This document shows positions 3,380 to 58,393 of a DNA stretch of 64,000 bases, piece after piece (the stretch's first letter is position 1; each line of letters begins with the position of its first letter). The translations under genes were made by a program, and so were the position numbers. This DNA comes from a bacterium (GTDB lineage Bacteria; Hydrothermota; UBA3073; JACQXS01; JAGMCI01), in assembly GCA_030018315.1 (NCBI GenBank), contig JASEGA010000006.1, positions 1,271 through 65,270 of the forward strand, in the 5' to 3' direction. The notes under the pieces are model-generated. The model worked only from the letters and a program-made list of their open reading frames with translations, had not been told where the DNA came from and did no database searches.

Positions 3380-4730
3380 TCACATTCTAAATACTCCAAA
3401 CTTATGGTCCGGAATAGGTGCATTAAGGGACATTGAGATGCCTAACCCAAGCACTGTCCTTGTATCAACTGGGTCAATTATTCCATCATCCCATAGCCTG
3501 GCAGTTGAATAATAAGCACTGGATTGCTCCTCATACTCTCTTAATATAGGCTCACGCAGTTTTTCTCTCTCCTCATCAGTCAATTCCTTACCCTCTTTTT
3601 TAAGTGCTTCTATCTTCACATCTAAAAGAACATCAGCTGCCTGCTCACCACCCATCACACATATTTTAGCATTCGGCCACATCCATAATAACCTCGGTTC
3701 ATATGCTCTGCCACACATCCCATAGTTGCCTGCCCCATAAGAGCCACCTATAATAACTGTAAACTTGGGCACATCTGCATTAGCGACTGCATGCACCATC
3801 TTAGCACCATCTTTGGCTATACCTTGATGCTCATACTTTTTACCTACAATAAAGCCAGTTATATTTTGTAAGAAAACAATATGCTGGCTCGCCAGGCTCT
3901 AAGCGCTCAAGGTCAAACTTCTTTGGTAGAGGTAGATTCTGGACAATATTTCTTGTTATCTCCAAAGCATGCTCATCATTAACCGCATAGTGGTCAGTAA
4001 CACCCGAAATCCGACAGTGAACATCAGCACCACCAAGCTCCTCAACAGTTACTACCTCACCAGTAGCCGCCTTAACAAGCGGCGGCCCCCCAATATAAAT
4101 TGTGCCCTCCTCTTTTACAATAACTACTTCATCACTCATCGCCGGCTGATATGCACCGCCAGCAGTACAGAAGCCCATAACTGCTGAAATCTGTGGTATG
4201 TTCATTGCCGACATGCGTGCCTGATTGTAAAAGATACGTCCAAAGTGGTATTTATCAGGAAAAGTGCCTGCCTGTAATGGTAAAAATATTCCACCCGAAT
4301 CTACGAGATATATACAGGGGAGCCTATTCTCCATCGCAATCTCTTGCGCTCGTATATGTTTTTTAATAGTCTCAGGCACATAAGTGCCACCCTTAACAGT
4401 GGCATCGTGTGCAACTACCATAACTTCTCTGCCATGAACTACACCTATTCCTGTAACTATACCTGCACATGGGTGCTCGTTGTTATACATACCACAACTC
4501 GCAAGTGGTGATAATTCAAGGAATGGTGTATTTGGGTCAAAAAGTAGTTTCAGCCTATCCCTGACAAACAGCTTACCACGTGCCTTATGCTTCTCATGCA
4601 TCTTAGAGGGCCCACCTTTTTTAACCTCAGAAAGCCGTTCCTTTAACTCCTTAACAAGCGACTTCAGGTGCTCCTTGTTTTCATTAAACTCTGAACTATT
4701 TGAATTTATCTTTGACTCTATCTTATACAT
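3380..4730 (-). pseudogene. methylcrotonyl-CoA carboxylase beta / acyl-CoA carboxyltransferase, disrupted by an internal deletion plus frameshift
   Basis: The N-terminal piece (3840-4730) matches the carboxyltransferase N-domain up to ...[11 protein letters not shown]. The C-terminal piece is open from 3899 in another frame ([38 protein letters not shown]...GIFRM). About 65-75 residues of the conserved YGIV...RNIP segment are missing between the pieces, and the junction is not a homopolymer. An intact paralog lies at 25769-27319. Confidence 0.75.
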
Positions 4731-9631: not shown

Positions 9632-10870
9632 ATGAAAAGAGTATTTATAGGGATAATTTGTTATTTTATAACAAATGGATACGCTTTTACACAGGGTATG
9701 GATTGGGTATGTGCGACAGACAGTGCACCATGGCATGGAAGAGCATTCCATTCATCAGTTGTATTTGATAACAAGATGTGGATTATAGGCGGTGGGTGTG
9801 AAGAGGGTGGGATGGTATTAAATGATGTCTGGTATTCTTCTAATGGAGTCAAATGGGTATGTGCTACAGAGAATGCTGAATGGCTGCCAAGATGGGGACA
9901 TACATCAGTTGCATTTGATAATAAGATTTGGGTTATTGGAGGACTTGATGCTAATTTTGAGTTTAAAAATGATGTCTGGTATTCTTCTGATGGAACTAAA
10001 TGGGTATGTGCTACAGAGAATGCGGAATGGTCGCCAAGGATTGCACATACATCAGTTGTATTTGACGACAAGATTTGGGTTATTGGTGGATTTGGCTTTC
10101 CTTTTGAGTTTAAAAATGATGTCTGGTATTCTGCTACCGGAGATAGTTGGACACTTGCTACAGATAGTGCTGAATGGAATCCAAGAGCTGCACATTCATC
10201 AGTTATATTTGATGACAAAATTTGGGTTATTGGTGGATTTGACACCACTTTTATGGTTACAAACGATGTCTGGCATTCTACTAATGGAATTAAATGGGTA
10301 TGCGCAACAAATGACGCAGAATGGAGTGCAAGATATAGTCACTCATCAATCGTATGTGAGGATAAGATTTGGGTTATTGGGGGAATAGATGACTACGAGT
10401 ATATGAACGATGTTTGGTACTCAGATAATGGAAGCAATTGGTTATGTGCAACAGAAAGTGCACAGTGGTCACCAAGATATGCACATACATCATTAGTATT
10501 TGATAACAAAATGTGGGTCATTGGAGGTGAAGAAATAATAGGAGACAGTGTGAGTTATCCAACTGATGTATGGTATTCAGTTATTGCAGGAATTACAGAA
10601 AATAATGTCCAATCAGATAGACTCTATCTTAATGTTACACCAGTTATTGCAAGAGACTATGTAAAAATAAGATACAAAAATAACGGGGATGTAAAAATAT
10701 TTAATATATTAGGGAATACGGTAAGGAACTTTAAAACCGTAGACGACAGAGATGAAATAATTGTAGAATTAAAAGATAACAATGACAAAAGATTACCTCA
10801 AGGTGTATATTTTATTCAACTTAAAACCAAAGCTACCAGTGCAACTGCTAAATTCATAATCATGCAGTAG
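9632..10870 (+). CDS. Kelch/galactose-oxidase-type beta-propeller repeat protein with a T9SS C-terminal sorting domain
   Basis: Six or more repeats of NDVWYSS.G.KWVCATENAEW.PR..HTSVVFD.KIWVIGG. The C-terminal ~90 aa match the T9SS CTD pattern (LYLNVTPV...FIQLKT). Confidence 0.75.
   Translation: MKRVFIGIICYFITNGYAFTQGMDWVCATDSAPWHGRAFHSSVVFDNKMWIIGGGCEEGGMVLNDVWYSSNGVKWVCATENAEWLPRWGHTSVAFDNKIWVIGGLDANFEFKNDVWYSSDGTKWVCATENAEWSPRIAHTSVVFDDKIWVIGGFGFPFEFKNDVWYSATGDSWTLATDSAEWNPRAAHSSVIFDDKIWVIGGFDTTFMVTNDVWHSTNGIKWVCATNDAEWSARYSHSSIVCEDKIWVIGGIDDYEYMNDVWYSDNGSNWLCATESAQWSPRYAHTSLVFDNKMWVIGGEEIIGDSVSYPTDVWYSVIAGITENNVQSDRLYLNVTPVIARDYVKIRYKNNGDVKIFNILGNTVRNFKTVDDRDEIIVELKDNNDKRLPQGVYFIQLKTKATSATAKFIIMQ
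9700..10560 (+). repeat. intragenic tandem repeats of ~141 bp (Kelch blades)
   Basis: Near-identical nucleotide units repeat through the gene. They generate the spurious antisense/alternate-frame ORFs 9661-10248 and 9822-10388. Confidence 0.6.
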
Positions 10871-10975: not shown

Positions 10976-11563
10976 TTAGGCGGATTTACCGTATCTATCT
11001 TTATACACAAATGTAGATAGTTCCTTCCTCAGCGGTGGCTCCGGATATTCAGCCGGATAGCCGACTGGCATAAGCTCAACTACAGCAATACCATCTGGGA
11101 CACCAAGTATTTTAGCTGCCTCTTTTGCATCAAATGCACCTACATGGACTGTACCAAGTCCATATGAATATGCGGCAAGTGTCAGATTTTGCAGTGCTAA
11201 TGCGACATCAAACATAAACCAGTCCCCTTTATCTGTCCTCGGCTCACCTTTATAGAAGCCAGCCTTCTTAAGCTCGGCACAAGCTACAAGAACAACAGGT
11301 GCCTCAACAATACCGGGACGGGCAGGATTACGCTCAGATAAAGTAGTAACAAGCCTCTCCTTTACTGATTTATCTCTTACTACAATAAACTCCCAGCACT
11401 GAGTATTTGCCCATGAAGGTGCCCAACGAGCAGCTTCAAGTAACTCATTTAGTAAATTATCAGCAATATCATCAGGCTTATACTTCCTTATACTACGCCG
11501 CTTCTTAATTGCTTGCATTACATCTCCACAGGTCATACGACCCGTATGGAATCCTTCGGACAT
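10976..11563 (-). CDS. nitroreductase family protein; the N-terminal 14 codons derive from an inserted mini-element
   Basis: MSEGFHTGRMTCGDV then MQAIKKRRSIRKY, a paralog of 687-1244. The true start may be the internal ATG (MQAIKK), which has a GGAG RBS inside the element. Confidence 0.85.
   Translation of the reverse strand: MSEGFHTGRMTCGDVMQAIKKRRSIRKYKPDDIADNLLNELLEAARWAPSWANTQCWEFIVVRDKSVKERLVTTLSERNPARPGIVEAPVVLVACAELKKAGFYKGEPRTDKGDWFMFDVALALQNLTLAAYSYGLGTVHVGAFDAKEAAKILGVPDGIAVVELMPVGYPAEYPEPPLRKELSTFVYKDRYGKSA
11524..11560. repeat. family-A miniature palindromic element, long form (ctccacaggTCATACGACCCGTATGGaatccttcgga)
   Basis: Near-identical to 14253-14288. It contains the palindrome AGGATCC(T) split by a nested hairpin CATACG-ACC-CGTATG. 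Confidence 0.8.
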
Positions 11564-11575
11564 AATCCCTCCTTA

Positions 11576-11607
11576 AACTTTTAGACTTTTAGACTATTAG
11601 ACTTTTA
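11576..11607 (-). promoter_or_regulatory. TTTTAGACT motif site F2, upstream of nitroreductase 10976-11563
   Basis: aacttttagacttttagactattagacttttaa. Confidence 0.5.
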
Positions 11608-11609
11608 AT

Positions 11610-12017
11610 TTACTTCTCACATAGCTCAATAAGTACACCATGAACAGCACTCGGGTGCAAGAATGCCACCTTCTTAGTAAATGCACCCTTACTTGGTACT
11701 TCGTCTATTAATTTAATACCCTTAGATTTAAGCTCAGTTAATACTTTTTCAATATCTTTGACTTCAAAGCATAAATGATGTAACCCCTCCCCTTTCTTTT
11801 CTAAAAACTTCGCTATTGGACTATCCTCTCCTATAGGTTCAATAAGTTCAATCTTAACGCTACCTGCATCTCCACAGGATCCTTCGGAAAGCACAGCAAC
11901 CTTAACCTTCCGATAATCTACTTTAGCAAACTTCTCAACTTTAAGTCCAAAAGAAGCCCAAATCTTAATCCTATCCTCAATACTCCTCACCGCTATCCCA
12001 ATATGGTCAAGTTTCAT
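11610..12017 (-). CDS. methylmalonyl-CoA epimerase / VOC (glyoxalase-fold) protein
   Basis: 135 aa; MKLDHIGIAV...HHLCFEV...HGVLIELCE. It carries the short family-A insert (LSEGSCGDAG). Confidence 0.7.
   Translation of the reverse strand: MKLDHIGIAVRSIEDRIKIWASFGLKVEKFAKVDYRKVKVAVLSEGSCGDAGSVKIELIEPIGEDSPIAKFLEKKGEGLHHLCFEVKDIEKVLTELKSKGIKLIDEVPSKGAFTKKVAFLHPSAVHGVLIELCEK
11869..11889. repeat. family-A element, short form (ctccacaggatccttcggaa), in frame inside the epimerase CDS
   Basis: Same sequence as the arms of the long form but without the nested hairpin. Confidence 0.75.
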
Positions 12018-12029
12018 CTTTCACCTATC

Positions 12030-12086
12030 GTAGGGGTTTGATTTATCAAACCCAAACTTATTGGGCACGATAAATCGTACCCCTAC
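12030..12086. repeat. large imperfect inverted repeat (GTAGGGGTTTGATTTATC ... GATAAATCGTACCCCTAC)
   Basis: Arms of 18 nt with 2 mismatches. The core resembles the GGGGTTTGATTAATCAAACCCC palindrome found in the T9SS CTD copies. Confidence 0.5.
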
Positions 12087-12126
12087 ATTTAAAAACAAAA
12101 TGCCATGAATGTGCGAACTCAATTAA

Positions 12127-13437
12127 CTATAGCAATTTTCTTTTCTTTGCTTCCTCTTCAAGCCATGGCCTAAACTTTGGGTGTGCTACTTTAATTAAGG
12201 ACTCAGCACGCTCTCTTAAGTTTTTGCCATGTAAGTATGCGACTCCATACTCTGTAACCACATAATGGACATCCGCCCTTGTTGTTACCACTCCTGCACC
12301 TAACTTAAGTGATGATACAATCCTTGATACTTCACCCCCTTTAGCTGTTGATTGTAATGCAATTATAGGCTTACCACCTTTGGATTGAGCCGCACCACGA
12401 ATAAAATCTACTTGACCACCAAACCCAGAATATATCTTAACCCCAATTGAGTCTGCACAGACCTGACCCGTCAAGTCTACTTCAATAGCAGAGTTTATTG
12501 CAACCATCCTTTCATTTTGTGATATTATAAACGGATGGTTTGTATAATTTGCGGGATGTAGTTCAAATACAGGATTATTATGTGCATATCCATATGCTCG
12601 TTTTGACCCCAATATAAAAGTAGCAATTACTTTGTAAGGGTGTAAAGTCTTCTTTGCACCAGTTATTATTCCAGCTTCAATAGCCTCTATTATACTGTCA
12701 GATACCATCTCAGTATGTATACCGAGGTCTCTTTTATCTTTCATTGCCTTAAGGGCAGCATTTGGGATACCACCTATACCAAGCTGAAGTGTGGAACCAT
12801 CCTCTACAAGGTCTGCTATATGAGCGCCTATACTCTTCTCTGTATCAGTTAACTCTTTTACAACTAATTCGGGTAACTCCTCTGAGACTTCCACAATTTT
12901 ATCCACCTGAGACACATGAATAAACGAATCACCAAGTGTCCTCGGCATCTTATCATTAACCTGTGCTACCACAAGATTAGCAGTCTCAGCCGCCGCCTTA
13001 GATGCTAAACACTCAACTCCAAAACTCATAAATCCATGCTCGTCAGGAGGTGAAAGATGCAAAAGGGCAACATCAGGTTTCATAGCACCTGAGTAAAACA
13101 GGTCCGGTATCTCGTATAAGAATACAGGAATATAGTCAGCACGCCCCTCATTTACTACTTTCCTATCTGCAGGTCCGACAAAAAGTGAGTTGTGTCTAAA
13201 GTGACCTTCCATATCAGGCTTTGAAAGCGGGTCTTCACCAAGCAAAAGGACATGGGTTATCTCAACATCATATAGCTTATCTTTACGCTCGGCGAGTGCA
13301 TCCAGCAACTTTAATGGAGTAGCTGCATTCCCACTTATGTACACACAGTCGCCACTCTTTATCACAGAGACTGCCTCTTCAACAGAGACAAGCTTCTTCT
13401 TGTAATCGTCAAACCAGCTTGAGGTCGCACCTCTCAT
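12127..13437 (-). CDS. acetyl-CoA hydrolase/transferase family CoA-transferase (4-hydroxybutyrate / succinyl-CoA:acetate CoA-transferase-like)
   Basis: 436 aa with conserved N- and C-terminal CoA-transferase family I-like blocks (GDCVYISGNAATP...; ...SGFGGQVDFIRGA). Confidence 0.85.
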   Translation of the reverse strand: MRGATSSWFDDYKKKLVSVEEAVSVIKSGDCVYISGNAATPLKLLDALAERKDKLYDVEITHVLLLGEDPLSKPDMEGHFRHNSLFVGPADRKVVNEGRADYIPVFLYEIPDLFYSGAMKPDVALLHLSPPDEHGFMSFGVECLASKAAAETANLVVAQVNDKMPRTLGDSFIHVSQVDKIVEVSEELPELVVKELTDTEKSIGAHIADLVEDGSTLQLGIGGIPNAALKAMKDKRDLGIHTEMVSDSIIEAIEAGIITGAKKTLHPYKVIATFILGSKRAYGYAHNNPVFELHPANYTNHPFIISQNERMVAINSAIEVDLTGQVCADSIGVKIYSGFGGQVDFIRGAAQSKGGKPIIALQSTAKGGEVSRIVSSLKLGAGVVTTRADVHYVVTEYGVAYLHGKNLRERAESLIKVAHPKFRPWLEEEAKKRKLL

Positions 13438-14555
13438 TTTATGTACTCCTTCTTTATACTTCCTTTATAAATATAAACCCCTCTATTAAGAGCCGAATCC
13501 TCTTTTAACGCTTTATCTATTCCAAACTTAACTATATTCTTAAGGTATGGAAGAATTGCCCCGGTTAGCGCATGAGTTGAAGTCCTCGCTACAAGTGTTG
13601 GCGTATTAGGCATACAGAAGTGGATTACACCTTCCACTGTATACACAAATTTGCCAGCCGGTGCAAGCTTAGCTGTCTCAACACACCCACCTTGGTCTAT
13701 GTCAAAATCTATAATTACCGCTCCTTTCTTCATAGATTTGACCATATCTTTAGACACAAGGATAGGTGTCCTTTCACCGACCACAAAGACTGCACCTATC
13801 AAAACATTGGCAAATTTGACAAGTTTCTCTATGTTATACTTGGTAGCAAAAAGTGTAGTCACCTTGTGTTCCATATGACAAGCAATATCTTCCAACTTGT
13901 CACGACTTATGTCCATCACATATACATTAGCACCAAGACCGGCAAGACTCTTAGCTGCATTACAACCTAATGTGCCACCACCAAATATGACAACCTCAGC
14001 CGGTGGGACACCGGGTATGCCACCAAGCAAGATGCCACGCCCACCACTTGAGGACTCAAGAAGCCTTCCCGCTATCTGCGGTGCAAGCTTACCTGCTATC
14101 TCACTCATCGGGATAAGGACTGGAAGCTTACCATCATCCTTCTGAATTATCTCATAACCAATAATTGTAGTCTTTTTATTAATAAGCACATCTATCAGTG
14201 CTTTTGGGGCAGCTACAAGATTAAAAAAGCCCATTATAACTTTACCTTCATCTCCACAGGTCATACGACCCGTATGGGATCCTTCGGAAATAATTTTATA
14301 CTCCAACTCTTGCGGCTCCCTCACTTTAACGATTATTTCAGCCCTCTTATAGACCTCGTCTTTAGAATACACAATCTTAGCACCTACAGTCTCATAATCA
14401 ACATCTGTAAACCCAACACCAGAACCAGCACCACTCTCAACATAAACAGTTGTGCCAAGCTCAATAAGCTCCCTCACGCCCATGGGAGAGAGTCCTACCC
14501 GATACTCTGGTATATCCTTAAATATAGGCAACTCCTTCGGTACCCCTATAATCAT
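13434..14555 (-). CDS. alanine dehydrogenase, carrying an in-frame 14-17-aa insertion from a family-A element
   Basis: MIIGVPKE...VKVREP ... PMSEIAG ... GGGTLGCNAAK (Rossmann) ... IDQGG. The extra SEGSHTGRMTCGDEGKV lies between conserved blocks, compared with Bacillus Ald. Confidence 0.85.
   Translation of the reverse strand: MIIGVPKELPIFKDIPEYRVGLSPMGVRELIELGTTVYVESGAGSGVGFTDVDYETVGAKIVYSKDEVYKRAEIIVKVREPQELEYKIISEGSHTGRMTCGDEGKVIMGFFNLVAAPKALIDVLINKKTTIIGYEIIQKDDGKLPVLIPMSEIAGKLAPQIAGRLLESSSGGRGILLGGIPGVPPAEVVIFGGGTLGCNAAKSLAGLGANVYVMDISRDKLEDIACHMEHKVTTLFATKYNIEKLVKFANVLIGAVFVVGERTPILVSKDMVKSMKKGAVIIDFDIDQGGCVETAKLAPAGKFVYTVEGVIHFCMPNTPTLVARTSTHALTGAILPYLKNIVKFGIDKALKEDSALNRGVYIYKGSIKKEYIK
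14253..14288. repeat. family-A element, long form, in frame inside alanine dehydrogenase
   Basis: ctccacaggtcatacgacccgtatgggatccttcgga, identical at all but 1-2 positions to 11524-11560. Confidence 0.8.
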
Positions 14556-14577
14556 TTAAACCTCCTCACCACTTTAT

Positions 14578-14608
14578 GACTTTTAGTCTATTACACTTTT
14601 AGATTTCC
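14578..14608 (-). promoter_or_regulatory. TTTTAGACT motif site F3, upstream of alanine dehydrogenase
   Basis: gacttttagtctattacacttttagatttcc. Confidence 0.5.
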
Positions 14609-14647
14609 TTATTAAAAATCAAACCTGACACCAAAGATTCTCATTAA

Positions 14648-17620
14648 TCATGCCATCGCTTCTAACATCTTTTCAATGTTATCAAACCAATATTGTTTAT
14701 ACTCAGTAAGAGCTTTCGAAACGTCCTCTGGTCTTAGGAGCAATTTTATTCTGACTTTGAATCCGTTGTGATTAAAAACCCTTTCTTCTCCGTTTTCCTC
14801 GAATAATGCTTTATACCCATCAATTTTCCTGTAAGCACTTGTATGTTCTGTCCCCTTTGGATCAACAAAAACAATAAAGTAGTTATCTCCTTTCTTTAAC
14901 CAGAAAATAAAATCTGGGTAAAATCTGCTGATTTTATTCACATTAGGATTATAATACGGAATATAAATTTCGTCTAAACTTTCATCCAATTTGCTAAACA
15001 ACCACCAATCGAACATTTTAAATTTGTTAGCATTTTTAACTAAATAATTTTCCAAATCATTAATGAACTTTACCTCGCTTGAAGTCTTGATAACGTGCTT
15101 GATGTAATCTATCTTTTCGTCATCAGACAGTATAAGTGGAAGGTAGTAATGATTAGCAATGTACTTAATTCTCAGTTGTTTACTTTGATACTCTACTCTT
15201 TCCTCTCTGACCATCCGAGCAGATTCCTTGATACCTTCCGTGTATTGTTCTAAAGTAATTTCCCTACGCCCGTATTTCTCCTTCAACTCTCTTTCCAATA
15301 CAGAGGGGTCTTTGAATTGGCGGATAGCTTCAATTTTCTTTTGTATTTCGTTGATATCTTTCAAATACACCCTGATATTCTTAAAATGTTTTATCTCTTT
15401 CTCTAATTCTTTAAGCCCTTCAAATTCCTCTGGAACGACACTGAGGTAATCAAAAAATCTTTGAATAAGCAAATCTACATTTTTAAAACCTTTTTCACCA
15501 AACTTAAAATTGCTTTGATTATTCAATCTCCTTCTTAAAAGTTCTATTTTTATGGGTTCTGTGTTATATCTCATCAAGAATACTCTGTCATCTGGGACAA
15601 ACTCATTAAATTTATTAAGTACCTCAAAATCCTTAGTGGAAATCTCAAACTTTATTGGTTCTTCGGTCTTCAAAAGAGGATAATTTGCTGATTTGTATGT
15701 TGGCACCAGCAATTTATGTTTTCGAGCCTCATCATTCACAAAGAGAGAAAGTTGAGCCTCCCCCTCTCTTTTTCTTTCTCTCTCCAACTCCTGAACTACT
15801 TTAGCTAAAGCACTCCTGTTTGTTGCAAAAATAAATAGAGTTTCTATTGGTAAGACTTTATTTTTGATTTTGTTGAATAACTCCTCCCCATCTATCTCCT
15901 TTGCATTGTAAACTTGTAATAACCTCTTTCTTTTGTCCCTTATTGGTTCAATTCTTACTCCTCTCCCAACAGATTGTAAAATAAATTTTTTTGCATCCTC
16001 TCCCATTCCTATATTGATAAAATTGATTACATTGGGTCTATTAGAATCCCACCCTTCATAAAAACCACGAGAGCCCATCAAGATATTGATCTCAGAATTT
16101 TCTCTATTCAAATTTTCAAAATAACTTTCATCTTCAAATCTTTCTTGAACTTCGTATCCTGCAAGTTTTTCTTTTAGCCATCCTGATATATCACCTATTT
16201 TTATCAATGCAAAATGTTTATCGCTTGTCTTTAACTTAAACGCCAGCTCCTTCTTATTGGATGGTCTTCTTAAGATTTCAATTTCTCCACCTGATTTTGA
16301 GTTGTAAACATAGTTCAAAATATCTTCTTTTGTAATGTTTTTAAAAATTGTTTCGTCTATTTTTATTTTCCTGCCATCTTCAAATATAAACTCAGGCTCT
16401 TGCTTTAACTCATCCCATAGTTCGTTAAGAGCATTCTTAAAAACTTCTTGTTCAATCTCTTGTTTTCCAATTTTTTCAAGTTCTCTAAAAAACAGCTTTA
16501 GGTCAGCATCTTCCTTATTAACAGAGTTGACAAGGGTCAAAAGCAATGGCTTATGATATAAATCTGATCGGATATTCTTAATATCTTCATAAAATTTTTT
16601 CACATAAGTCAGAAGGATTAATGATTTTAAGACTATCTTCTGCTTCTCATCACCGCTATAATCTTCCTCATTTCTAAATGCCCTTATTTCTTGCTTTAAA
16701 ATAGTAATGTGCTTTCCGTATCCAGAATTTATAAAACTTGATAGGTTAAATTCAAAAGCACATGTGATAACATCTCTTGGGTCTATAAAGGTTGCTGAGG
16801 AATTAAATAGAAACCCCTGTCTTGATAGGATGGAATAAATATGCTGTCTTTTTGACTCTTCCTTATCTCCTTTATGTGCCTCATCGAGAAAAATATACCA
16901 TTTCCCATCGTTGTCGTAATTTTTGAAGTCTATAATTTTTTCTTTCTGCTCATCACTTAAGTTATCTGAGCGGTAATAAAATACGGTAATCCCGAATAAT
17001 GTTGGTTGTCTTTTAACCTCAGGATAATCTTTGAGCTCTTTTAGAATTATTCTGGGTTCGTTTACATAGTTGAATTCATCTACATGGTGTTTAAGTTGCC
17101 CTATTAAGTCGTCCCTGTGAGTTAAAATTAGAATATCGTATAGTGGAATTTCTTTTCTTTTAATTAACTCTGCTAAAATTTGGATAAGTTTAATGATAAC
17201 AAGGCTCTTTCCACTTCCTGTTGCCATCCAAAAACACATCCGATTGATAAGATGCTCATAAGGGATTTTCCCATCTTCTCGAGGATAATATCCTGTAAGA
17301 AGGTTATAGATGTTCCTTTTCCTCTTATCTAACTTAATATCTAAATTTTCATCTAATCCATTATCTTTATACCAGTTGAAAAACTTTTGTTTTCTTTCTT
17401 GATAGATTTCTAATCTTTCACCGTCTTGATAATCTACAAAATCTTCAAAATACTTCCAGATAACCTTTACAGCATTTTTAACTGCCTCTTGCTGATAATC
17501 CCAGAGTTTCTTGTTCTTGGAAAAACTCTCCAAATCAAAAGAATTCCAGTTAGCAGGTAAATCTTCAAATCTTAAATCTTCAATTATGTCCTGTAAGAAT
17601 ATTCTTACCATTTTTACCAC
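14648..17620 (-). CDS. Type III restriction enzyme Res subunit (SF2 helicase plus C-terminal PD-(D/E)xK nuclease)
   Basis: 990 aa with Walker A MATGSGKS, DEAH box FLDEAHKGD, a helicase C-domain, and a C-terminal VFVDPKG motif. The start overlaps the Mod stop. Confidence 0.8.
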   Translation of the reverse strand: MVKMVRIFLQDIIEDLRFEDLPANWNSFDLESFSKNKKLWDYQQEAVKNAVKVIWKYFEDFVDYQDGERLEIYQERKQKFFNWYKDNGLDENLDIKLDKRKRNIYNLLTGYYPREDGKIPYEHLINRMCFWMATGSGKSLVIIKLIQILAELIKRKEIPLYDILILTHRDDLIGQLKHHVDEFNYVNEPRIILKELKDYPEVKRQPTLFGITVFYYRSDNLSDEQKEKIIDFKNYDNDGKWYIFLDEAHKGDKEESKRQHIYSILSRQGFLFNSSATFIDPRDVITCAFEFNLSSFINSGYGKHITILKQEIRAFRNEEDYSGDEKQKIVLKSLILLTYVKKFYEDIKNIRSDLYHKPLLLTLVNSVNKEDADLKLFFRELEKIGKQEIEQEVFKNALNELWDELKQEPEFIFEDGRKIKIDETIFKNITKEDILNYVYNSKSGGEIEILRRPSNKKELAFKLKTSDKHFALIKIGDISGWLKEKLAGYEVQERFEDESYFENLNRENSEINILMGSRGFYEGWDSNRPNVINFINIGMGEDAKKFILQSVGRGVRIEPIRDKRKRLLQVYNAKEIDGEELFNKIKNKVLPIETLFIFATNRSALAKVVQELERERKREGEAQLSLFVNDEARKHKLLVPTYKSANYPLLKTEEPIKFEISTKDFEVLNKFNEFVPDDRVFLMRYNTEPIKIELLRRRLNNQSNFKFGEKGFKNVDLLIQRFFDYLSVVPEEFEGLKELEKEIKHFKNIRVYLKDINEIQKKIEAIRQFKDPSVLERELKEKYGRREITLEQYTEGIKESARMVREERVEYQSKQLRIKYIANHYYLPLILSDDEKIDYIKHVIKTSSEVKFINDLENYLVKNANKFKMFDWWLFSKLDESLDEIYIPYYNPNVNKISRFYPDFIFWLKKGDNYFIVFVDPKGTEHTSAYRKIDGYKALFEENGEERVFNHNGFKVRIKLLLRPEDVSKALTEYKQYWFDNIEKMLEAMA

Positions 17621-20210
17621 CAGATTAAAGGTTTAATGAGTTTGTAATCTAAATTTTTAAGGTCTATTTTTTCTCCATCCTCAAATTCCACTTCATCAGC
17701 AGATATTCTCTTTATCCACTTTCCTAAAATGTTAGAAAGTGTCTCTGGAACGTCTATGTTTGGATAAAGTTTTGATAAATCCACCTTTACTTTATTATTC
17801 TCATAATCTATTTCTAACGCAGAAAGCATTTTCAAATCCCGCATAAAAACATATTGATTGTATGGGTCTTCATAAGGATTTTCAAATAAATCTGAATCCT
17901 CATATTTCGCTCTCCTTAAAGTATCCTCGTATTGCTCAAGTTCGTAGTATTTGAAAAATCCTCCACCTTGCCAGTTTACTTCTTTGGAGATACCACAAGG
18001 TTCATGATTGCCTTTACCTGCCAACACTTCTTTCATTCTCGGAAGAATAGTATCATAAAAATAGTTGCCCATTTCAATCCCAAGCCATTTCCCCCTAACT
18101 TTTGCATTACTGCGGTGGTCGTTCCAGAACCCAGGAAAAAGTCCAATATTAAATTTCGTTTTTCGTAATTCGATAGCTCCATTACTTTATTAATAAATGC
18201 TTCGGGTTTTTTACCGCTTCCAAAATAAGCAGGACCTTCATATCCAGTTCTATTGAATTCATTAACCATATCAAAATAGTTTGGATAAGGTATCTCTTTG
18301 ATTTCACGTTTATTTACTGGAATCCCTTGAAAATAATCACCATTGTTCCTTTTTGATGACTTATCAGGGATACAAAAATAACGGTAACCTAATCCATCAT
18401 TTCCCATCTCATGAACTTTAAATAAGTAACCTCTATAATTTTCAAAATTCGGTTCGAGATACTTTACATAAAATCTCCCACTAGAATTCCCTTGTCGAAT
18501 AGACCCTCGTATATTGATTCTTTTTAGCTGTTTTTCGCCTGGATTTAGCTGTACAAATTCATATGAACCAGGTTTAAATACCTCCACTTTTTTACTGCTG
18601 AAATTCAGAACTAAATCTGCTCTCTTTTGTTCTTTTACTTGCCAAATGTATTCATTTATTGATGTATTCTCCTTTTTTATTTTTTTAATCATATGATTTT
18701 TACTTTTTCTATAATATAAAAGATTCTCTACAACTTCATGGACTTCCTTGTCACCTTTCAGTATTCTTTCTTCATGTCTAACTTTAATAACAAAATTTGC
18801 CAGGTAATTAGCGTCAGTAAATACCATATCTGTAATATGCTTTAAGTTATAAAGTTCATTTTCATTAATACTTACACAGATATTTCCTGTATCTCTTAGA
18901 AATTCTTTTGCCATTTGTAGCCTATTTAATATCATTGTTAGCCAAGTAGAATGTTGAAACTTGTCTTTATAAATAAATTCATCACTGCCAGTATTATAAG
19001 GCGGGTCAATGTAAATCGTCTGCACCTTTTCTTTAAACTTCGGCAAGATCGTTTGCAATGCTTGATAGTTTTCGCTTTTTATCAGCCAGCCATCTAAGGC
19101 GTTATCTAAATCGTCAAACAAGCCTAAAATTTCAAGTTCTAAATCCTTAAAGTATTTTGTATCAATTGGCAGATGCTGGTATTTAGAATTTAGAGATTCT
19201 TCGCTATCGCTCAGAATGTCAGAAGAGGCGAAGTTATCAGCCACAATCCCTAATTCTTTCCAATCTTTTACCTGTTCATTAAAGTTCTTGTGATTTAATA
19301 TTTTCTCTACAACTTCAATGCTTTTATCTGCTATCTTATCCAGAGTTATCACATAGTTTGAGTTTAAAGCAAACTTTGGCTTATTCCAGATTTTTACAAG
19401 CTCGTCTTCAAATTGAGAAATAAAATTAATTATCTTAAATGCTATATCTTTTAAGGTTTGTAATTGTTTTATCCTTTCTTCTGTCCAATCGCTTTCACCA
19501 GAGAAAACATACTGATAAAGCCAGATATTAAATTGCTCTTTTAAAAATTCTTTTGCATTTTTGTTGATGAAAAAATCTACCTCGCTCTGCTTCTCAAAAA
19601 CTCTAAAAGCATTCTCTAATATATCATCCGTTATTCTTATCCCTTCTTTCTTTAATGTCTTCAAAATCTCATCAATTTTTGTTATCTTACCTCGCTCAGA
19701 ATAAGAAACATTGAAAACAATTATCCCATCATTCCTTTTCTTTTTAAATTCAAAAATTATCTCTTTTTTCTCAAAGGCTTTCTTATGCTCTAATCGTGAG
19801 ACATCAAAGAAGAATTTGAAACCGTCTATTTCTACTTCCAGATTTTTAAACAACCTATCAGTTTTGACATAATAAAGCATATGCGTTTTCCAGAAGAGCA
19901 TCGTATCTTTATCATCGGTATATACATTCTCATAGACATTTTGATGAATTGGGGTATATCTAAAATAAATAGAACCGCTTTCTGAAAAATAACGATTGAA
20001 GAAGGTGTAGAGTTTATCAAAAAGCTCTTCTCTAAATCCTGGAAACGGATTTAATGCCTCTTCTAAGTCCTTTTGAAGTTTTGGAAAGATACCTTTTTCA
20101 TAGTATCTTGATTTAATCCTCATCAAATTGATGTATCCAGATTCTCCTTCTACCTTTGCACCTACAAAGATGTCTTTTAATGCGTTATAGAATTTTTCTT
20201 CCTTAGTCAT
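17614..20210 (-). CDS. Type III R-M Mod N6-adenine DNA methyltransferase, with an apparent 1-bp frameshift in a G5/C5 run (18091-18095)
   Basis: DPPY motif IV (YIDPPYNTGSDEF) precedes the FFLGSGTT AdoMet motif, i.e. beta-class order. The track splits it into 18033-20210 and 17614-18072; G6 instead of G5 would read ...KLGGKWLGIEMGNYFYD... continuously. Confidence 0.8.
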
Positions 20211-20741: not shown

Positions 20742-20993
20742 TCAACTCATAGTGACCGCCTCGTATTTTCTCTCTTTAAGACTCCGTGCCTGCACCTCAA
20801 GATGCTTATACCGCTCAAAATCTGCAATATCCTCAACTACTCCTTCTTTCCATTTATACCTCCTTTTACTCAAACATATTAACAAAATTTCGTGAAGAGA
20901 AAACTTAGAGGTCTCACCTTTAATCCACACATCACTATCATTTTCTTGCTTCGTCATTCGACATTCGCCCTGAATCAAGTTCAGGGTCGTCAT
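20742..20993 (-). CDS. small hypothetical ORF coupled to the MCM stop (TAATG); doubtful
   Basis: 83 aa with no motif. Its 5' region overlaps a hairpin/heptamer-repeat element (20949-20986), so it may be non-coding. Confidence 0.25.
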   Translation of the reverse strand: MTTLNLIQGECRMTKQENDSDVWIKGETSKFSLHEILLICLSKRRYKWKEGVVEDIADFERYKHLEVQARSLKERKYEAVTMS

Positions 20994-22576
20994 TAAAACA
21001 CAAACTTCTCTTTGTATTCACCAAACACTTCCCTTAATACACTACAGATCTCACCCAATGTAGCGTAGCACTTGACACAGTCAATGATTGGTTCCATAAG
21101 GTTGCCATTATCTTCTGTTGAACCTCTGCCCTGAGCAGAGCGAAGGGAAAGTGAAGCATCTCGAAGAGTCTTTAAAGATGCATTCACTTTACGATTATCC
21201 CTTGTTGACTTCAACTTTTTTAGTCTTACTATCTGCTCTTCTCTTACCTTTGGGTCTACTTTCAGTATATTTTTAGTGTAGTCCTCTTCACCTTCTACAA
21301 ATCTGTTAACCCCAACAACTACTTTTTTACCACTCTCAATTGCTTTCTGGTATTCATACGCACTATTATGAATTTCATGCTGAAAGTAACCAATCTCAAC
21401 TGCCTTTAAGGCGCCACCAATTGAGTCTATCTTGTTTATATACTCCATAGCTTTTGCTTCAATATCTTTAGTAAGCGATTCTATATAATAAGAACCACCA
21501 AGTGGGTCAATAGTGTTAGGGACACCGCTCTCATATGCAATTAGCTGCTGTGTCCTCAATGCAAGCCTAACCGCTTCTTCACTTGGCAATGCGAGTGCCT
21601 CATCCATTGAATTAGTATGTAAACTCTGTGTGCCACCAAGAACAGCAGCAAGTGATTGGAATGCAACTCTTACAGCATTGTTTTCGGGCTGCTGAGCAGT
21701 CAATGTACAGCCGGCAGTCTGGGCATGAAATCTCAGCATCCATGACTTTGGGTCTTTAGCATTAAATCTTTCCTTCATTATCTTTGCCCATAGCCGCCTG
21801 GCAGCACGAAATTTAGCTATCTCTTCAAAGAAATCGTTGTGTGCATTAAAGAAGAATGATAGCCTTGGTGCAAATGAGTCTACGGTAAGCCCACGCGCAA
21901 TAGCTGCCTCTACATAAGCTATAGCATTAGCAAGTGTAAATGCAAGCTCCTGTACTGCAGTTGCACCTGCCTCTCTTATATGATAACCGGAGATTGAGAT
22001 TGTATTCCATTTAGGTAAATATTTACTACAATACTCAAATATATCTATTGTAAGCCGCATTGATGGGACAGGTGGAAATATATATGTGCCACGTGCAATG
22101 TATTCCTTTAATATATCATTTTGAACAGTGCCCGAAAGTAGCTCCCTTGATACACCTTGCTTATTAGCGACTGCTATATACATTGCAAGTAGTATAGGAG
22201 CAGTTGAATTTATTGTCATTGAAGTGCTTACTTTATCAAGAGGGATGCCATCAAATAAAGCCTCCATATCCAAAAGTGAATCAATAGCGACACCAGTTTT
22301 ACCAACTTCTCCCTCAGAAAGTGGATGGTCTGAGTCGTAACCCATCTGAGTCGGTAAATCAAATGCTACTGATAGCCCTGTCTGTCCCTGTGCAAGTAAA
22401 TATTTATATCGCTTATTAGACTCCTTTGCACTCGCATAGCCAGCATACTGACGTATAGTCCATAGTCTACCACGATACATATTAGGATAAATACCACGTG
22501 TAAATGGATACTCACCAGGAAACCCAATGTCCCTTAAGTAATCTAAATCTTTTATATGTTTAGGAGTGTATAACAT
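20993..22576 (-). CDS. methylmalonyl-CoA mutase-family large subunit (catalytic TIM-barrel domain, split type), with an in-frame family-B element insertion near the C-terminus
   Basis: 527 aa with [23 protein letters not shown] and [14 protein letters not shown]. The extra ~15-17 aa [15 protein letters not shown](NG) near the C-terminus are absent from the paralog at 30172-31785. Confidence 0.9.
21124..21168. repeat. family-B palindromic element (reverse orientation), in frame within the MCM CDS
   Basis: ctctgccctgagcagagcgaagggaaagtgaagcatctcgaagag. It shares GAGATGCTTCAC and GCCCTGAGC modules with 31797-31875 and 40361-40415. Confidence 0.75.
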
Positions 22577-22946: not shown

Positions 22947-22952
22947 CTCCAT

Positions 22953-22980
22953 ACTTTTAGACTCTTAGACTCTTATTCTA
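22953..22980 (-). promoter_or_regulatory. TTTTAGACT motif site F5, upstream of the four-helix-bundle gene
   Basis: acttttagactcttagactcttattcta. Confidence 0.5.
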
Positions 22981-23467
22981 TTATTACTAATGTATCGCCC
23001 CCATTTACCGTCATCCCCTGTTTGACAAGTACCTGCTTAACAAGCCCATCTCTTGGTGCCTTCATCTCATTTTGCATCTTCATCGCCTCAACTATCAAAA
23101 GACCACTACCCGCTTTTACTGTATCACCTGGCTTTACCCCTACTTCTATAACTAACCCTGGCATGGGAGCAGTGACCTTAACTTCACCAACATGAGTAAT
23201 CTCAGGCTTGAGTTTAGTGAGTGCTTGTACTTGCTCATCCTCAACACTTACCTTGAATCTCTCACCATCTACCGAAATAGTATTCTCATCCTCAATAATA
23301 ACATCATACGACTTGTTATCAACTATCAGTGATAAATGTGAATTACTGCCAACCTCCACAACAGTAGCTTTCATAGGCTTGTTATCTATATAAACTTTGA
23401 ATCCATTACCTTCTTTTTCTAACTCAACTTTGAACTCCTTATCATCAACTTTAGCAATATATGCCAT
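22973..23467 (-). CDS. biotin carboxyl carrier / biotinyl-domain subunit
   Basis: C-terminal EAMKM biotinylation motif (VEAMKMQNEM) plus a ~90-aa N-terminal extension. Confidence 0.85.
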   Translation of the reverse strand: MAYIAKVDDKEFKVELEKEGNGFKVYIDNKPMKATVVEVGSNSHLSLIVDNKSYDVIIEDENTISVDGERFKVSVEDEQVQALTKLKPEITHVGEVKVTAPMPGLVIEVGVKPGDTVKAGSGLLIVEAMKMQNEMKAPRDGLVKQVLVKQGMTVNGGDTLVIIE

Positions 23468-23480
23468 TTATACTGTCTTA

Positions 23481-23511
23481 CTTTTAGACTATTAGACTTT
23501 TAGTCTATTAT
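23481..23511 (-). promoter_or_regulatory. TTTTAGACT motif site F6, upstream of the biotin carrier gene
   Basis: acttttagactattagacttttagtctatta. Confidence 0.5.
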
Positions 23512-25010
23512 CACATCTTTCTCAATTCTGCCTGCCTCGCTGCAAACTTCCATGCACTGTAACGGGATTCGGATACTTTTGGGATAACTGAAACTTTCTT
23601 CTCTTTTAATGTCATCGCAATGGTTGCCCCTATAGCGGCAATGGGCTGGTTTGTCTTCTTTAATTCTGTGCTACCAAGCATCTTATCTACAAATGTTGTA
23701 TTATACTCACCACTTATAAAATATTGATTATTCATTACAAGCTGATGAAATGGTATACTTGTCTTAATCCCTATTATCTTATATTCAGAGAGTGCTCTCC
23801 TCATCCTTGATATAGATTCATCTCTCGTAGGTGCCCATACAAGTAACTTTGCAATCAACGGGTCATAAAACATAGGAACTTCAAATCCAGCAAATACTCC
23901 ACTATCTACTCTAACACCAGGTCCATTAGGCTCTATTAACTCAACTATTTTACCAGTTGATGGCATAAAGTTATTATCCGGGTCCTCAGCAGTTATCCTG
24001 CACTCTATAGCTGCACCTGATAATTTTACATCCTCTTGCTTAATTGATAGACGCTCACCTGCTGCTATCTTAAGCTGCTCCTTTACAATATCTATTCCGG
24101 TGACAAGCTCAGTTACAGGATGCTCAACCTGTAGCCTTGTATTCATCTCAAGGAAGTAGAAGTTCCTGTCTTTGTCTACCATAAACTCAACTGTCCCCGC
24201 ATTTGTATAACCTGACGCCTTAACTGCCTTGACTGCAGCAGCACCCATCTTAGCTCTAAGCTCTTTAGTCATCAAAGGTGAAGGCGACTCCTCTACTAAC
24301 TTCTGATACCTACGCTGAATAGAACACTCACGCTCACATAGATGGACTGCATTCCCATAGTTATCGGCAAGTATTTGAAACTCTATATGACGAGGAGAGT
24401 CAAGATACTTCTCAATATATATTGTTGGATTACCAAATGCAGACTTGGCTTCTGACATCGCTTGCTTCATAGCTGGCTTAAGCTCAGACTCAGACTTCAC
24501 TACCCTCATCCCTTTGCCACCACCACCAGCAGCCGCTTTTATAAGAACAGGAAAACCTACTTCATTCACAACCTTAATGGCTTCAGCTTCACTTGTAAGC
24601 CCTTTACTGGAACCGGGAGTCACAGGCACTTTAGCTTTAGTTATCGTCTTCCTTGCTTCAATTTTATCACCAAGTAGCCTTATAGCTTTGGAGTTGGGAC
24701 CAATGAATATTATATTATGAGACTCACAAGCCTCTGCAAAATATTCGTTTTCAGCTAGAAAACCATAACCTGGATGAATAGCGTCAGCATCCGTCTTCTT
24801 AGCTACTTCTATAATCTTGTCTATCTTAAGGTAGCTCTCAGCTGCAGGTGCCGGCCCTATCTCATATGCCTCATCTGCATACCTTGTATGCAATGCACTC
24901 CTGTCAGCTTCTGAATAAACTGTAGCTGTAAGTATACCAAGCTCCTTACACGCCCTAAGTACCCTTATTGCAATCTCACCACGATTCGCTACTAAAACCT
25001 TCCTAATCAT
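23511..25010 (-). CDS. biotin carboxylase subunit (acetyl/propionyl-CoA carboxylase or pyruvate carboxylase A-type)
   Basis: 499 aa; MIRKVLVANRGEIAIRV..., an ATP-grasp fold, GGGGKGMR. Confidence 0.92.
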   Translation of the reverse strand: MIRKVLVANRGEIAIRVLRACKELGILTATVYSEADRSALHTRYADEAYEIGPAPAAESYLKIDKIIEVAKKTDADAIHPGYGFLAENEYFAEACESHNIIFIGPNSKAIRLLGDKIEARKTITKAKVPVTPGSSKGLTSEAEAIKVVNEVGFPVLIKAAAGGGGKGMRVVKSESELKPAMKQAMSEAKSAFGNPTIYIEKYLDSPRHIEFQILADNYGNAVHLCERECSIQRRYQKLVEESPSPLMTKELRAKMGAAAVKAVKASGYTNAGTVEFMVDKDRNFYFLEMNTRLQVEHPVTELVTGIDIVKEQLKIAAGERLSIKQEDVKLSGAAIECRITAEDPDNNFMPSTGKIVELIEPNGPGVRVDSGVFAGFEVPMFYDPLIAKLLVWAPTRDESISRMRRALSEYKIIGIKTSIPFHQLVMNNQYFISGEYNTTFVDKMLGSTELKKTNQPIAAIGATIAMTLKEKKVSVIPKVSESRYSAWKFAARQAELRKM

Positions 25011-25388: not shown

Positions 25389-25670
25389 TTGAAGAAAGCA
25401 AATCCCAAATCCAAAATATCCGCAGGATCCTGTGGATTGGAGGCATATCCTAATCCATTTAGGGATAAAACAGTGATTAGGGTTCAGGGATTAGGTAGGG
25501 GTTTGATTAATCAAACCCCTACACTACAAATTTATGATTTAGCTGGCAGAATAGTTAAGTCGTTCCCACTAATCACTAGCCACTTATCACTATCCACTGC
25601 TGTTTACTGGGACGGAAGTGATAACGATGGCAAGAAGCTCGGTACCGGAAAAATGCTAATTTTGAGATAG
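25389..25670 (+). pseudogene. orphan T9SS C-terminal sorting-domain fragment, a duplicate of the CTD of 27570-28121
   Basis: AYPNPFRDKTVIRVQGLGRGLINQTPTLQIYDLAGRIVKSFPLI... is ~85-90% identical at the nucleotide level to the reverse complement of 27640-27850. It has no cargo domain and starts at a TTG. Confidence 0.45.
25496..25521. repeat. perfect 26-bp palindrome TAGGGGTTTGATTAATCAAACCCCTA inside T9SS CTD coding sequence
   Basis: Self-complementary; a second exact copy lies at 27764-27789. It encodes GLINQTP. Confidence 0.8.
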
Positions 25671-27569: not shown

Positions 27570-28121
27570 TTATCTCACAACAATTATTTTCTTTGTTATA
27601 CTTTTATTACCAGTAGTAAGCTTGCAAAAGTATACACCTGAGTCAACAAATTTTCCAGCTTCATCCTTACCATCCCAAGAAACAGCAGTGATTAGTAAGA
27701 AGTGATCAGTGATAAGTGGAAAAGACTTAACTAATCTACCAGCCAGATCATAGATTTGTAGTGTAGGGGTTTGATTAATCAAACCCCTACCTAATCCCTG
27801 AATCCTAATCACTGTTTTCCCACTGAATGGATTAGGATATACTTCTAACAATTCGTCATTCGTCATTCGGATTTCGGATTTTACCGTCTCTTCTACTCCA
27901 TAAGCATCAACCTTTATAAGATATACATCAGACTCTCCTGCCCCATATGACCAAGTAGATCCAGCTATAATATAGCCACCGTCTCTCGTCTGTGCCACTG
28001 AGTAACCGAAGTCCCAATGAGTTCCGCCATATGTCTTTTCCCAGCCAGCAGATACTACATTAGCCAAACCTGGTAACCCCAATATAGTCACTATTACAGC
28101 CTTAGCAATCAACCTTAACAT
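27570..28121 (-). CDS. small secreted repeat protein with a T9SS C-terminal sorting domain
   Basis: Signal peptide; YGGT.WDFGYSVAQTRDGGYIIAG repeat; C-terminal CTD VYPNPFSGKTVIRIQGLGRG... Confidence 0.7.
   Translation of the reverse strand: MLRLIAKAVIVTILGLPGLANVVSAGWEKTYGGTHWDFGYSVAQTRDGGYIIAGSTWSYGAGESDVYLIKVDAYGVEETVKSEIRMTNDELLEVYPNPFSGKTVIRIQGLGRGLINQTPTLQIYDLAGRLVKSFPLITDHFLLITAVSWDGKDEAGKFVDSGVYFCKLTTGNKSITKKIIVVR
27764..27789. repeat. second copy of the 26-bp perfect palindrome TAGGGGTTTGATTAATCAAACCCCTA
   Basis: Exact match to 25496-25521. Confidence 0.8.
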
Positions 28122-28170: not shown

Positions 28171-29022
28171 TCAATGAATAGGATTCAATTTAAGCTTGCC
28201 TTCATCTTCACTTAAATACCCCATCCCAATTTTTGGGTCATGCTCAAATATAAGTAGCCAGTGTTCTTTAACTGCTATATTTAATAACTCTCTCTTCTTT
28301 TTCATTGTCTCTAATGGATACAAGTCATAACCCATCACATAGGGTAGTTTGATATGTGATGTTGTTGGAATCAAGTCAGCAAGATATAAAGCTTTTCCAC
28401 AGGATCCTTCGGAATTACCATGTGACTCAATTAACACAACTTGATGTCCTGCTGTATGCCCACCAGTCACAATAGTTTTAACACCCGGCACAATTTCTGT
28501 ATCCCCATCTATTAGATTAAGTAAACCAGCCTCTTCAATAGGGACCAAATTCTCTTTTAAATAGCTGGCACGAGTACGCTCATTTGGGTTGATGGCAGCA
28601 TCCCACTCACCACGTTGTATTACATATTTAGCATTCGGAAATGATGGAACAAGCTTGCCATTTTCAATCCTTGTGTTACCGCCACAGTGGTCAAAGTGGA
28701 GGTGTGTATTTATAACAACACCTATAGAGTCGTGGCTAAGTCCAAGCTTTTGTAAAGAGTCATTTAAATTACAAGTCTTATCTACCCTATACATACCCTT
28801 AAATTTTTCATCCATTTTTTCGCCAATCCCTGTATCTACAAGTATATTTTTATCACCTACTTGTATCAATAAGCAATTAAGACCAAGCTCAATCCTGTTT
28901 TCACTATCTGCAGGATTAAGTCTGTTCCAGATGACCTTAGGCACTATACCAAACATAGCACCACCATCAAGCCAAAACTTGCCATCTGAAAGGAGTTCTA
29001 AATTAGACTCGCCAAATCTCAT
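28171..29022 (-). CDS. MBL-fold metallo-hydrolase, with an in-frame short family-A insert
   Basis: [10 protein letters not shown] (HxHxDH) motif. The likely start is ATG 29020-29022, in an ATGA overlap with the upstream B12 subunit stop. [13 protein letters not shown] contains the family-A short form. Confidence 0.8.
28396..28414. repeat. family-A element, short form (tccacaggatccttcggaa), in frame inside the MBL hydrolase
   Basis: Same 19-mer core as 11869-11889. Confidence 0.75.
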
Positions 29023-58355: not shown

Positions 58356-58393
58356 ACAGAAATGTATGGGCGGGGTAACCCCGCCCCTACGAA
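58344..58393 (+). repeat. E-family REP-like element (TCATTGATGTAGACAGAAATGTA-GGGCGGGGTAACCCCGCCC-CTAC), copy 1
   Basis: GC hairpin GGGCGGGG-TAA-CCCCGCCC followed by a T6 run. Its first 12 nt encode S-L-M-stop of the preceding gene. A partial copy lies at 58436-58447. Confidence 0.8.

Follow-up and report, generated by a model that had tools for sequence, protein, structure and literature searches.

An 18-bp near-palindromic repeat lying in frame in enzyme genes of a Hydrothermota bacterium and in metagenome-assembled genomes labelled as other phyla

INTRODUCTION

Repetitive extragenic palindromic (REP) sequences are short imperfect palindromes, some of which lie within the genes of known proteins and are translated with them (PMC3733652). 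In the part of the same source that deals with them, Rickettsia palindromic elements (RPEs) are described as palindromic repeats lying in frame in open reading frames (ORFs) that stay functional, so that peptides are added to the products, and miniature inverted-repeat transposable elements (MITEs) are given as 70–300 bp long with terminal inverted repeats of 15–30 bp (PMC3733652). Here we analyse element A, an 18-bp near-palindrome found within five ORFs of a 64,000-nt stretch of DNA (the window; assembly GCA_030018315.1, contig JASEGA010000006.1, positions 1,271–65,270 of the forward strand) from a bacterium of the Hydrothermota lineage UBA3073. The original prediction, made from the letters of this DNA, had described A as a miniature palindromic element that enters unrelated enzyme genes in frame and behaves like RPEs.

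Several other features of described systems bear on the comparison. RPEs measure ∼100–150 bp and are not known outside Rickettsia, and MITEs make target-site duplications. Members of the IS200/IS605 family insert without target duplication, recognize hairpins, use a short target motif and act on single-stranded DNA. Short palindromes that are GC-richer than their A+T-rich hosts, some of them genic, are known as the GC-rich mobile palindromic clusters of yeast and fungal mitochondria and as HIP1 of cyanobacteria.

RESULTS

Element A has a 7-bp stem and a GATC loop. In the window it takes a short form of 18 nt and a long form of 36 nt, which reads TCCGAAGGATYC-CATACGGGTCGTATGACC-TGTGGA on the gene strand and holds a second hairpin, B (CCATACGGGTCGTATGAC). 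Only copies within the window are counted here for the source genome. They encode the peptides given below and lie in genes for a nitroreductase, methylmalonyl-CoA epimerase (MCE), alanine dehydrogenase (Ald) and a metallo-β-lactamase (MBL)-fold hydrolase, and in a fragment of a type IX secretion system (T9SS) tail:

11525–11560, minus strand: long form of A, 36 nt, in the nitroreductase gene; peptide MSEGFHTGRMTCGD
11532–11549, minus strand: inner hairpin B, nested in the A loop of the nitroreductase copy
11871–11888, minus strand: short form of A (TCCGAAGGATCCTGTGGA), 18 nt, in the MCE gene; peptide SEGSCGD
14253–14288, minus strand: long form of A, 36 nt, in the Ald gene; peptide SEGSHTGRMTCGD
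14260–14277, minus strand: inner hairpin B, nested in the A loop of the Ald copy
25419–25436, plus strand: short form of A, GCA variant (TCCGCAGGATCCTGTGGA), in the 93-aa ORF 25389–25670 (T9SS-tail fragment); peptide SAGSCGL
28396–28413, minus strand: short form of A (TCCGAAGGATCCTGTGGA), 18 nt, in the MBL-fold hydrolase gene; peptide SEGSCGK
10976–11563, minus strand: nitroreductase host gene, 195 aa
11610–12017, minus strand: MCE host gene, 135 aa
13434–14555, minus strand: Ald host gene, 373 aa
28171–29046, minus strand: MBL-fold hydrolase host gene, 291 aa

The positions first proposed for the repeats proved right to 1–2 bases. In 100 shuffles, the long and short patterns gave 0.00 matches expected by chance. 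The two long copies agree at 35 of 36 positions and share a stretch of 46 nt at 96% identity. As had been claimed, every copy in the window (5/5) is within an ORF, in sense orientation and in one common phase, and all five peptides fit S-E/A-G-S/F-(HTGRMT)-C-G. The description of the hosts as enzyme genes holds for the nitroreductase, Ald, MCE and MBL hydrolase, while the fifth host, the 93-aa fragment, gave only weak, below-cut-off matches to FlgD_ig and to a T9SS sorting domain. Its GCA variant is exactly the commonest form of A in other phyla, and this copy abuts the outer boundary of a 197-nt inverted duplication (25437–25633 / 27652–27848).

Comparison of the host proteins with orthologues and structures places the extra residues at the element. 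Ald has 373 aa here, whereas the 119 listed orthologues, the best of which is 72% identical and every one of which belongs to a WOR-3-type bacterium, have 359–363 aa. Residue-by-residue alignment with ten of these reveals one clean insertion of 12 residues, SEGSHTGRMTCG (residues 91–102), which has no counterpart in the ten; the lengths of all 119 are consistent with its absence, and the same 12-aa gap is seen against PDB 2eez. The figure of ∼14 extra residues given earlier is therefore to be replaced by 12. In an AlphaFold2 model built with 120 sequences (mean pLDDT 87), the sole segment below 50 is 93–102, that is, the insert, between a helix (83–86) and a strand (106–109), in line with the loop placement expected for it. 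A 5-nt repeat, GAAGG, flanks the Ald insert and might be taken for a target duplication; we rejected this, as other copies of A lack it.

In MCE, SEGSCG stands between VAVL and DAG and corresponds to a 6-aa gap against PDB 3oa4. P0122, the closest relative (86% identity in the alignment), has KVAVL/DAGN in place of the KVAVL[SEGSCG]DAGS of the window protein, so that the inserted unit must be exactly 18 nt and the GAT that follows it native. The MBL hydrolase (Pfam Lactamase_B) shows a 6-aa gap against PDB 3esh for SEGSCG, exactly at the element (E = 1.3e–45). In the nitroreductase gene the long form directly follows the ATG and adds SEGFHTGRMTCG, 12 residues after Met1; a Shine–Dalgarno sequence, AAGGAGGG, is located 5 nt upstream of this first ATG, the Pfam Nitroreductase domain begins at residue 19, and the homologue in a syntenic relative (L001) begins M-ELYDAIKG, without the 12 residues. 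These comparisons show that A in the window sits within loops of otherwise intact enzymes. An ancestral loop, which would have left the same residues in orthologues, does not agree with the 119 Ald lengths or with the insert-free MCE of P0122.

The loop that holds A in MCE is occupied in other ways elsewhere. The MCE of L001 (L001:12409–12834) has at A's site a different, 30-nt GC-rich double hairpin, TCCGCCAAGGGCGGC plus TCCGCCTCCGGCGAA, read as SAKGGSASGE, and in P0126 the same loop carries an insert of 21 residues. This points either to an insertion hot spot or to a loop that is very permissive. A further in-frame insertion of 12 residues is found in the methylmalonyl-CoA mutase gene (20993–22576) at 21107–21142, minus strand, and is absent from the L001 orthologue; its DNA forms the hairpin CTCTGC-TCAGG-GCAGAG, belongs to another sequence family and occurs once in the data examined. 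Among 11 orthologue pairs between the window and L001, four of the five indels of at least 3 aa are palindromic, with different sequence families.

An assembly or sequencing artefact would be the most trivial source of such repeats, and it is true that all multi-copy carriers are metagenome-assembled genomes (MAGs), isolate genomes giving, among the matches listed, only single matches at chance level. However, an independent assembly, Logan contig SRR23186779_6914, matches window positions 11520–14278 at 100% identity and reproduces three of the five copies base for base (both long ones and the short MCE copy), which are therefore present in the reads and no artefact of one assembly. Both ends of this contig fall inside the two long copies, as would be expected of a repeat that exceeds the assembler's word size. 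The same insertion contexts also recur in MAGs of different studies and contig-naming styles (L036/L093; L022/L031/L079/L098), mutated copies exist and the flank preference described below is not random. We regard an artefact as practically excluded.

The core of A, TCCGMAGGATCCTGTGGA, is widely spread beyond the loci of the window, against the possibility that it is peculiar to them. A scan of one genome per species gave at least 122 exact copies in at least 120 stretches, whereas ∼17–40 chance hits are expected in the whole collection by our estimate from base composition. Judging by record titles, with taxon labels taken as written in the records, one Thermodesulfovibrionia MAG has at least 16 core loci and another at least 6; at least 10 each come from the unclassified CAZHRR01 and from a Bacteroidetes MAG. 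Several more of the matches listed belong to MAGs labelled Kryptoniota, Chitinophagaceae, Ignavibacteria, Calditrichia, Neomarinimicrobiota, Zixibacteria and WOR-3; under the last six labels, as under Thermodesulfovibrionia, the core is multi-copy. Mutated extra copies accompany exact ones in the same loci. Single matches in high-GC genomes were discarded as coincidence. In two Thermoleophilia MAGs the match corresponds to the N-terminal RRILW motif of a membrane protein.

Elsewhere the core is found in all orientations and phases and mainly between genes: among the copies listed, 34% are inside long ORFs versus 69% of random positions. A is thus a multi-copy repeat of many genomes, depleted from genes yet tolerated there, and of the proposed likeness to an RPE-type colonizer of ORFs the in-frame insertions stand while the specificity for ORFs does not. 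Coding copies are preferentially read as S(E/A/T)GS(C/F)G or P(K/Q)DP(V/S/A) and rarely as RRILW. Examples are a Thermodesulfovibrionia HisC, in which the core matches a 5-residue gap against 3euc, and an IleRS from the same group with a 15-residue insertion that includes PKDPVE from the core.

The hairpin might act as a cis-acting RNA element, such as a ribosome pause site, an mRNA stabilizer or a terminator-like structure. The GCA variant does fold well (RNA –9.2 kcal/mol, z = –4.0; DNA –3.6 kcal/mol), the G.T pair gives a wobble on one strand only, and many core copies are ∼100–150 nt or less from ORF ends. On the other hand, orientation is unbiased relative to transcription (21 versus 19 intergenic copies; 19 sense versus 31 antisense coding copies), and shuffled sequences fold as well as the RNA of the GAA variant present in the window (z = –0.09). 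Searches of the window and 18 loci against Rfam at gathering thresholds, and a permissive one on 11480–11920, found nothing relevant. Also, the host genes are unrelated and their orthologues manage without A, which makes a role as an RNA element quite improbable.

How A is added can be seen at tandem units of locus L077, where an empty unit (...CCCTC/GAAGTT...) and a filled one (...CCCTC[18 nt]GAAGTT...) differ by exactly the 18-mer. There, as in MCE versus P0122, A was added as exactly 18 nt and without target-site duplication. For 122 listed copies the flanks have T at –2 (61%), A at +2 (57%), a purine at +3 (82%) and G at +4 (58%), giving the profile yTr[core]CARG, in which neither GTAG nor CGTC is seen. 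The shared preference is clear and can be written xTx/xAxG, the slash being the insertion point; it is degenerate, two-sided and quasi-palindromic. Three of the five window copies are at T/GATG and all five have G at +4; GATG beside the element is also found in L089 (WOR-3 UBA3073) and L136. The motif is already present at empty sites, namely in L077 and as native D-A codons in MCE orthologues.

Many copies are themselves framed by a hairpin. An outer stem of at least 6 bp surrounds 24 of 121 copies (∼20%), compared with 2.5% of random sites. In the CAZHRR MAG a hairpin CCCTCTCTT-ATGA-AGAGAGGG is found empty and, 40 nt on, again with A in its loop. We considered the outer stems as ordinary terminators hit by A and rejected this in part, since many would leave a loop of 0–2 nt once A is removed; the empty and filled pair of the CAZHRR MAG, the one clear case, counts against the rejection. 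The G.T pair of A is conserved, with the wobble on one strand only. The perfect palindrome is absent among 146 copies in loci picked by the TGTGGA pattern, a choice that favours this outcome.

The same insertion pattern could be produced with no dedicated enzyme: when a hairpin stalls replication, the nascent strand may jump to another copy as its template via 2–4 nt of microhomology, copy the hairpin there and return. The shared flanks would then be microhomology from the donor and not an enzyme target. Such events leave no target duplication, and they would account for the right flank GATG and left T of three of the five window copies and for the similarity of the two long copies over 46 nt; that four of five indels between the window and L001 are palindromes of unrelated families looks as if this were a general mutational mode of the lineage. 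The presence of the flank motif at empty sites (L077, MCE orthologues) would rather point to a target, though it fits either model. More difficult to explain is the occurrence of an identical 18-mer with the same G.T asymmetry in other phyla, where template switching within one genome cannot bring it. Template switching is therefore an unlikely explanation of A, albeit the main rival of an enzymatic mechanism.

The 18-mer has no stop codon in any of its six frames and none can be created with its neighbours, as read from the sequence; B has a stop in one frame only. With a length of 18 nt and no stop, any genic insertion adds six (or twelve) residues and the frame is kept automatically. The uniform phase of the window copies can be approached in a similar way. 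On the sense strand of window genes, 267 of 376 GATG (71%) are in phase 0, and CATC occurs 119 times, so roughly one in two insertions before GATG would have the orientation and frame seen in the window. The three GATG copies can be explained without selection for the peptide, and the frame preference is probably strengthened by selection against awkward peptides.

That all five window copies share one frame and yield Cys-Gly could nevertheless suggest that S-E-G-S-(HTGRMT)-C-G is a selected protein module, a surface Cys loop for metal binding, redox chemistry or modification. Selection of this kind does not account for DNA that is identical at synonymous sites across unrelated genes, nor for the same DNA elsewhere in six frames and between genes, and the common frame is explained by GATG phasing. 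The insert is moreover predicted to be disordered and the closest orthologues do without it. We give a peptide module very little credence. A protein-level query of four copies of SEGSHTGRMTCGD in a row returned 237 word-sharing candidates, none with E <= 10, and was uninformative.

Subtraction of the short from the long form of A leaves 18 nt, with boundaries ambiguous by 2 nt (CC). This inner hairpin B is an independent family: 63 metagenome stretches, with 53 distinct contexts, contain it, and nearly all of them have no A around it. Many copies of B crown other hairpins, and the base before B is C in 50 of 53. Outside the window, composites of A plus B are carried by L136 alone, which has two, both in frame and in one ORF. 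It is strongly supported that the long form is A with the independent hairpin repeat B nested in its loop, as had been supposed from the two window copies. Since B mostly occurs without A, we conclude that B was inserted into the GATC loop of A and that the composite was afterwards spread as one unit.

Several other features of the window were noted. The 197-nt inverted duplication next to the GCA copy is a T9SS tail whose arms are 83% identical. Perfect REP-type palindromes of the GTAG...CTAC type are found at 12030–12057, 25495–25522 and 27763–27790, and near 58364, 59879 and 60918; their sequences are GTAGGGGTTTGATTAATCAAACCCCTAC and GTAGGGGCGGGGTAACCCCGCCCCTAC, and two copies of GTAGGGGTTTGATTAATCAAACCCCTAC are in T9SS sorting domains and read GLGRGLINQTPTL. 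Look-alikes of A, TTCGCAGAATCCTGYGGA, occur at 37647–37664 and 61743–61760 and read RRILW/RRILR, the sites being a signal peptide and the C-terminal end of LpxC that overlaps the fabZ start. The two are identical at 23 of 25 positions and in opposite orientations, and a near-identical variant is present in WOR-3 UBA3073 (L086:2366, L171:2377). Their membership in A is doubtful; they are either a sub-family or a coincidence.

Start codons are closely preceded by arrays of TTAGACTn, with a period of 8 nt, at 1262–1294, 11573–11620, 14567–14614, 22949–22993 and 23468–23523, and similar arrays of 7–8 nt period flank A in other WOR-3 and Thermodesulfovibrionia loci (L070, L027, L086, L025). Between the Ald and mutase genes there is a low-GC (0.32) island, 14648–20210, with a type III restriction-modification pair (ResIII, N6_N4_Mtase); in L001 the corresponding position is taken by another island, of methylase/ResIII/TnsA-like content. 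The ORF 9632–10870 has a signal peptide, six tandem repeats of 147 nt, Kelch-like by eye (WYSS..G..W), and a T9SS-like tail.

DISCUSSION

Taken together, the data make it fairly probable that A is an 18-bp near-palindromic, non-autonomous hairpin repeat of REP type which is passively translated where it falls in genes, and that the long form is A plus B. According to this model, a trans-acting enzyme that recognizes hairpins in single-stranded form would make DNA copies of A, the most plausible candidate being an HUH/Y1 (IS200/RAYT-like) transposase. Indirect support for such an enzyme comes from the GTAG...CTAC palindromes that share the window with A and from a Y1_Tnp ORF, enclosed by composite nested hairpins, near a copy of B in locus L178. 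Within genes, A would be translated as a flexible Ser/Gly/Cys loop that may have no function of its own, and the uniform frame in the window would follow incidentally from codon structure and the GATG target.

It should be noted that a number of observations weigh against this model. A tblastn search of the window and of ∼0.93 Mb of loci with A, made with a set of IS200/RAYT probes, found no transposase adjoining A. The same probes gave matches in four B loci only, one RAYT-like ORF of which was checked against Pfam: a Y1_Tnp ORF in L178 (PF01797, 27.6 bits versus a cut-off of 23) is ∼120 nt from a B copy, and yet it is flanked by other composite hairpins that are neither A nor B. A lacks the GTAG/CGTC tag of classical REPs, and we know of no REP or MITE as short as its 18 bp. 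Folding is weak for the GAA variant, to which four of the five window copies belong (RNA –2.7, DNA –0.2 kcal/mol). Furthermore, the identical core is found in MAGs labelled as at least six phyla, whereas REPs are normally species-specific, so that a vertically inherited RAYT system is no explanation. No phage vector is evident either: viral contigs gave 1, 0 and 1 matches for A, B and the perfect palindrome, respectively, which is chance level.

The Y1_Tnp (RAYT-like) gene of L178 has an arrangement of its own. It lies between direct copies of a 55-nt composite hairpin, at 3397–3455 and 4020–4078, in which CATCATC-CGT-GATGATG and CATTGAC-ACG-GTCAATG, each with a 3-nt loop, are placed inside an outer stem. 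The architecture is that of A and B.

A bolder proposal is that A and B represent an undescribed class of minimal mobile DNA, that is, 18-nt stop-free hairpins which a horizontally spread, hairpin-specific enzyme moves by cut-and-paste or by copying, without target duplication, into hairpin loops and quasi-palindromic sites, and which nest in each other to form larger composite repeats, cross phyla and are a main source of in-frame loop insertions in proteins of several uncultured lineages. We put this forward tentatively, as a possibility that we ourselves hold to be on the doubtful side. If it is mobile, the 18-nt unit is the smallest mobile DNA known to us, and exact, duplication-free insertion into hairpin loops, if true, would point to an enzyme activity worth finding. 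The identity of the core across phylum labels makes horizontal spread of a repeat-and-enzyme pair testable. For proteins, such hairpins offer a concrete mechanism for the gain of short surface loops, four of the five indels between orthologues of the window and L001, which represent two related WOR-3 genomes, being hairpin-shaped. There are also consequences for the annotation and assembly of uncultured genomes, where repeats of this kind break contigs and give puzzling shared peptides in unrelated proteins.

In comparison with known systems, A comes near to several. A literature search for the sequence itself yielded no paper, keyword searches giving only general work on REPs, RPEs and MITEs. 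The view that in-frame palindromes are rarely reported outside Rickettsia was overstated, as REPs in frame have already been described (PMC3733652). Like A, the repeats of REP/REPIN–RAYT systems are short imperfect palindromes with G.T pairs, multi-copy, mainly intergenic and in some cases genic; they form dimers or nested arrangements, leave no target duplication and have a Y1 (HUH) transposase as the presumed mover. Unlike A, they have a GTAG/CGTC tag, a length of 20–40 bp (the 18 bp of A fall just short of this) and a mostly species- or genus-level distribution. A cognate RAYT, flanked in REP systems by the repeat itself, was not found beside A in the ∼0.93 Mb of its loci. The predominantly extragenic location of REPs is shared by A elsewhere, while in the window every copy is genic.

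The IS200/IS605 family resembles A in duplication-free insertion, its short target motif may be comparable to the degenerate flank preference of A, and its action on single strands would explain the preference for hairpin loops; it differs in having two different subterminal hairpins with guide sequences and in being far longer, and the target of A is two-sided and quasi-palindromic. The mitochondrial GC clusters and HIP1 differ from A in sequence, host and size, and HIP1 is an 8-mer not known to arise by insertion. MITEs are unlike A, which is 18 bp in total and makes no target-site duplication. With RPEs A has in common the in-frame insertion into ORFs whose products stay intact; it is set apart from them by description, with its 18/36 bp, its mostly intergenic location elsewhere and a distribution far beyond one genus. 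A works like intragenic REPs and RPEs, yet it belongs to neither of them, nor to MITEs.

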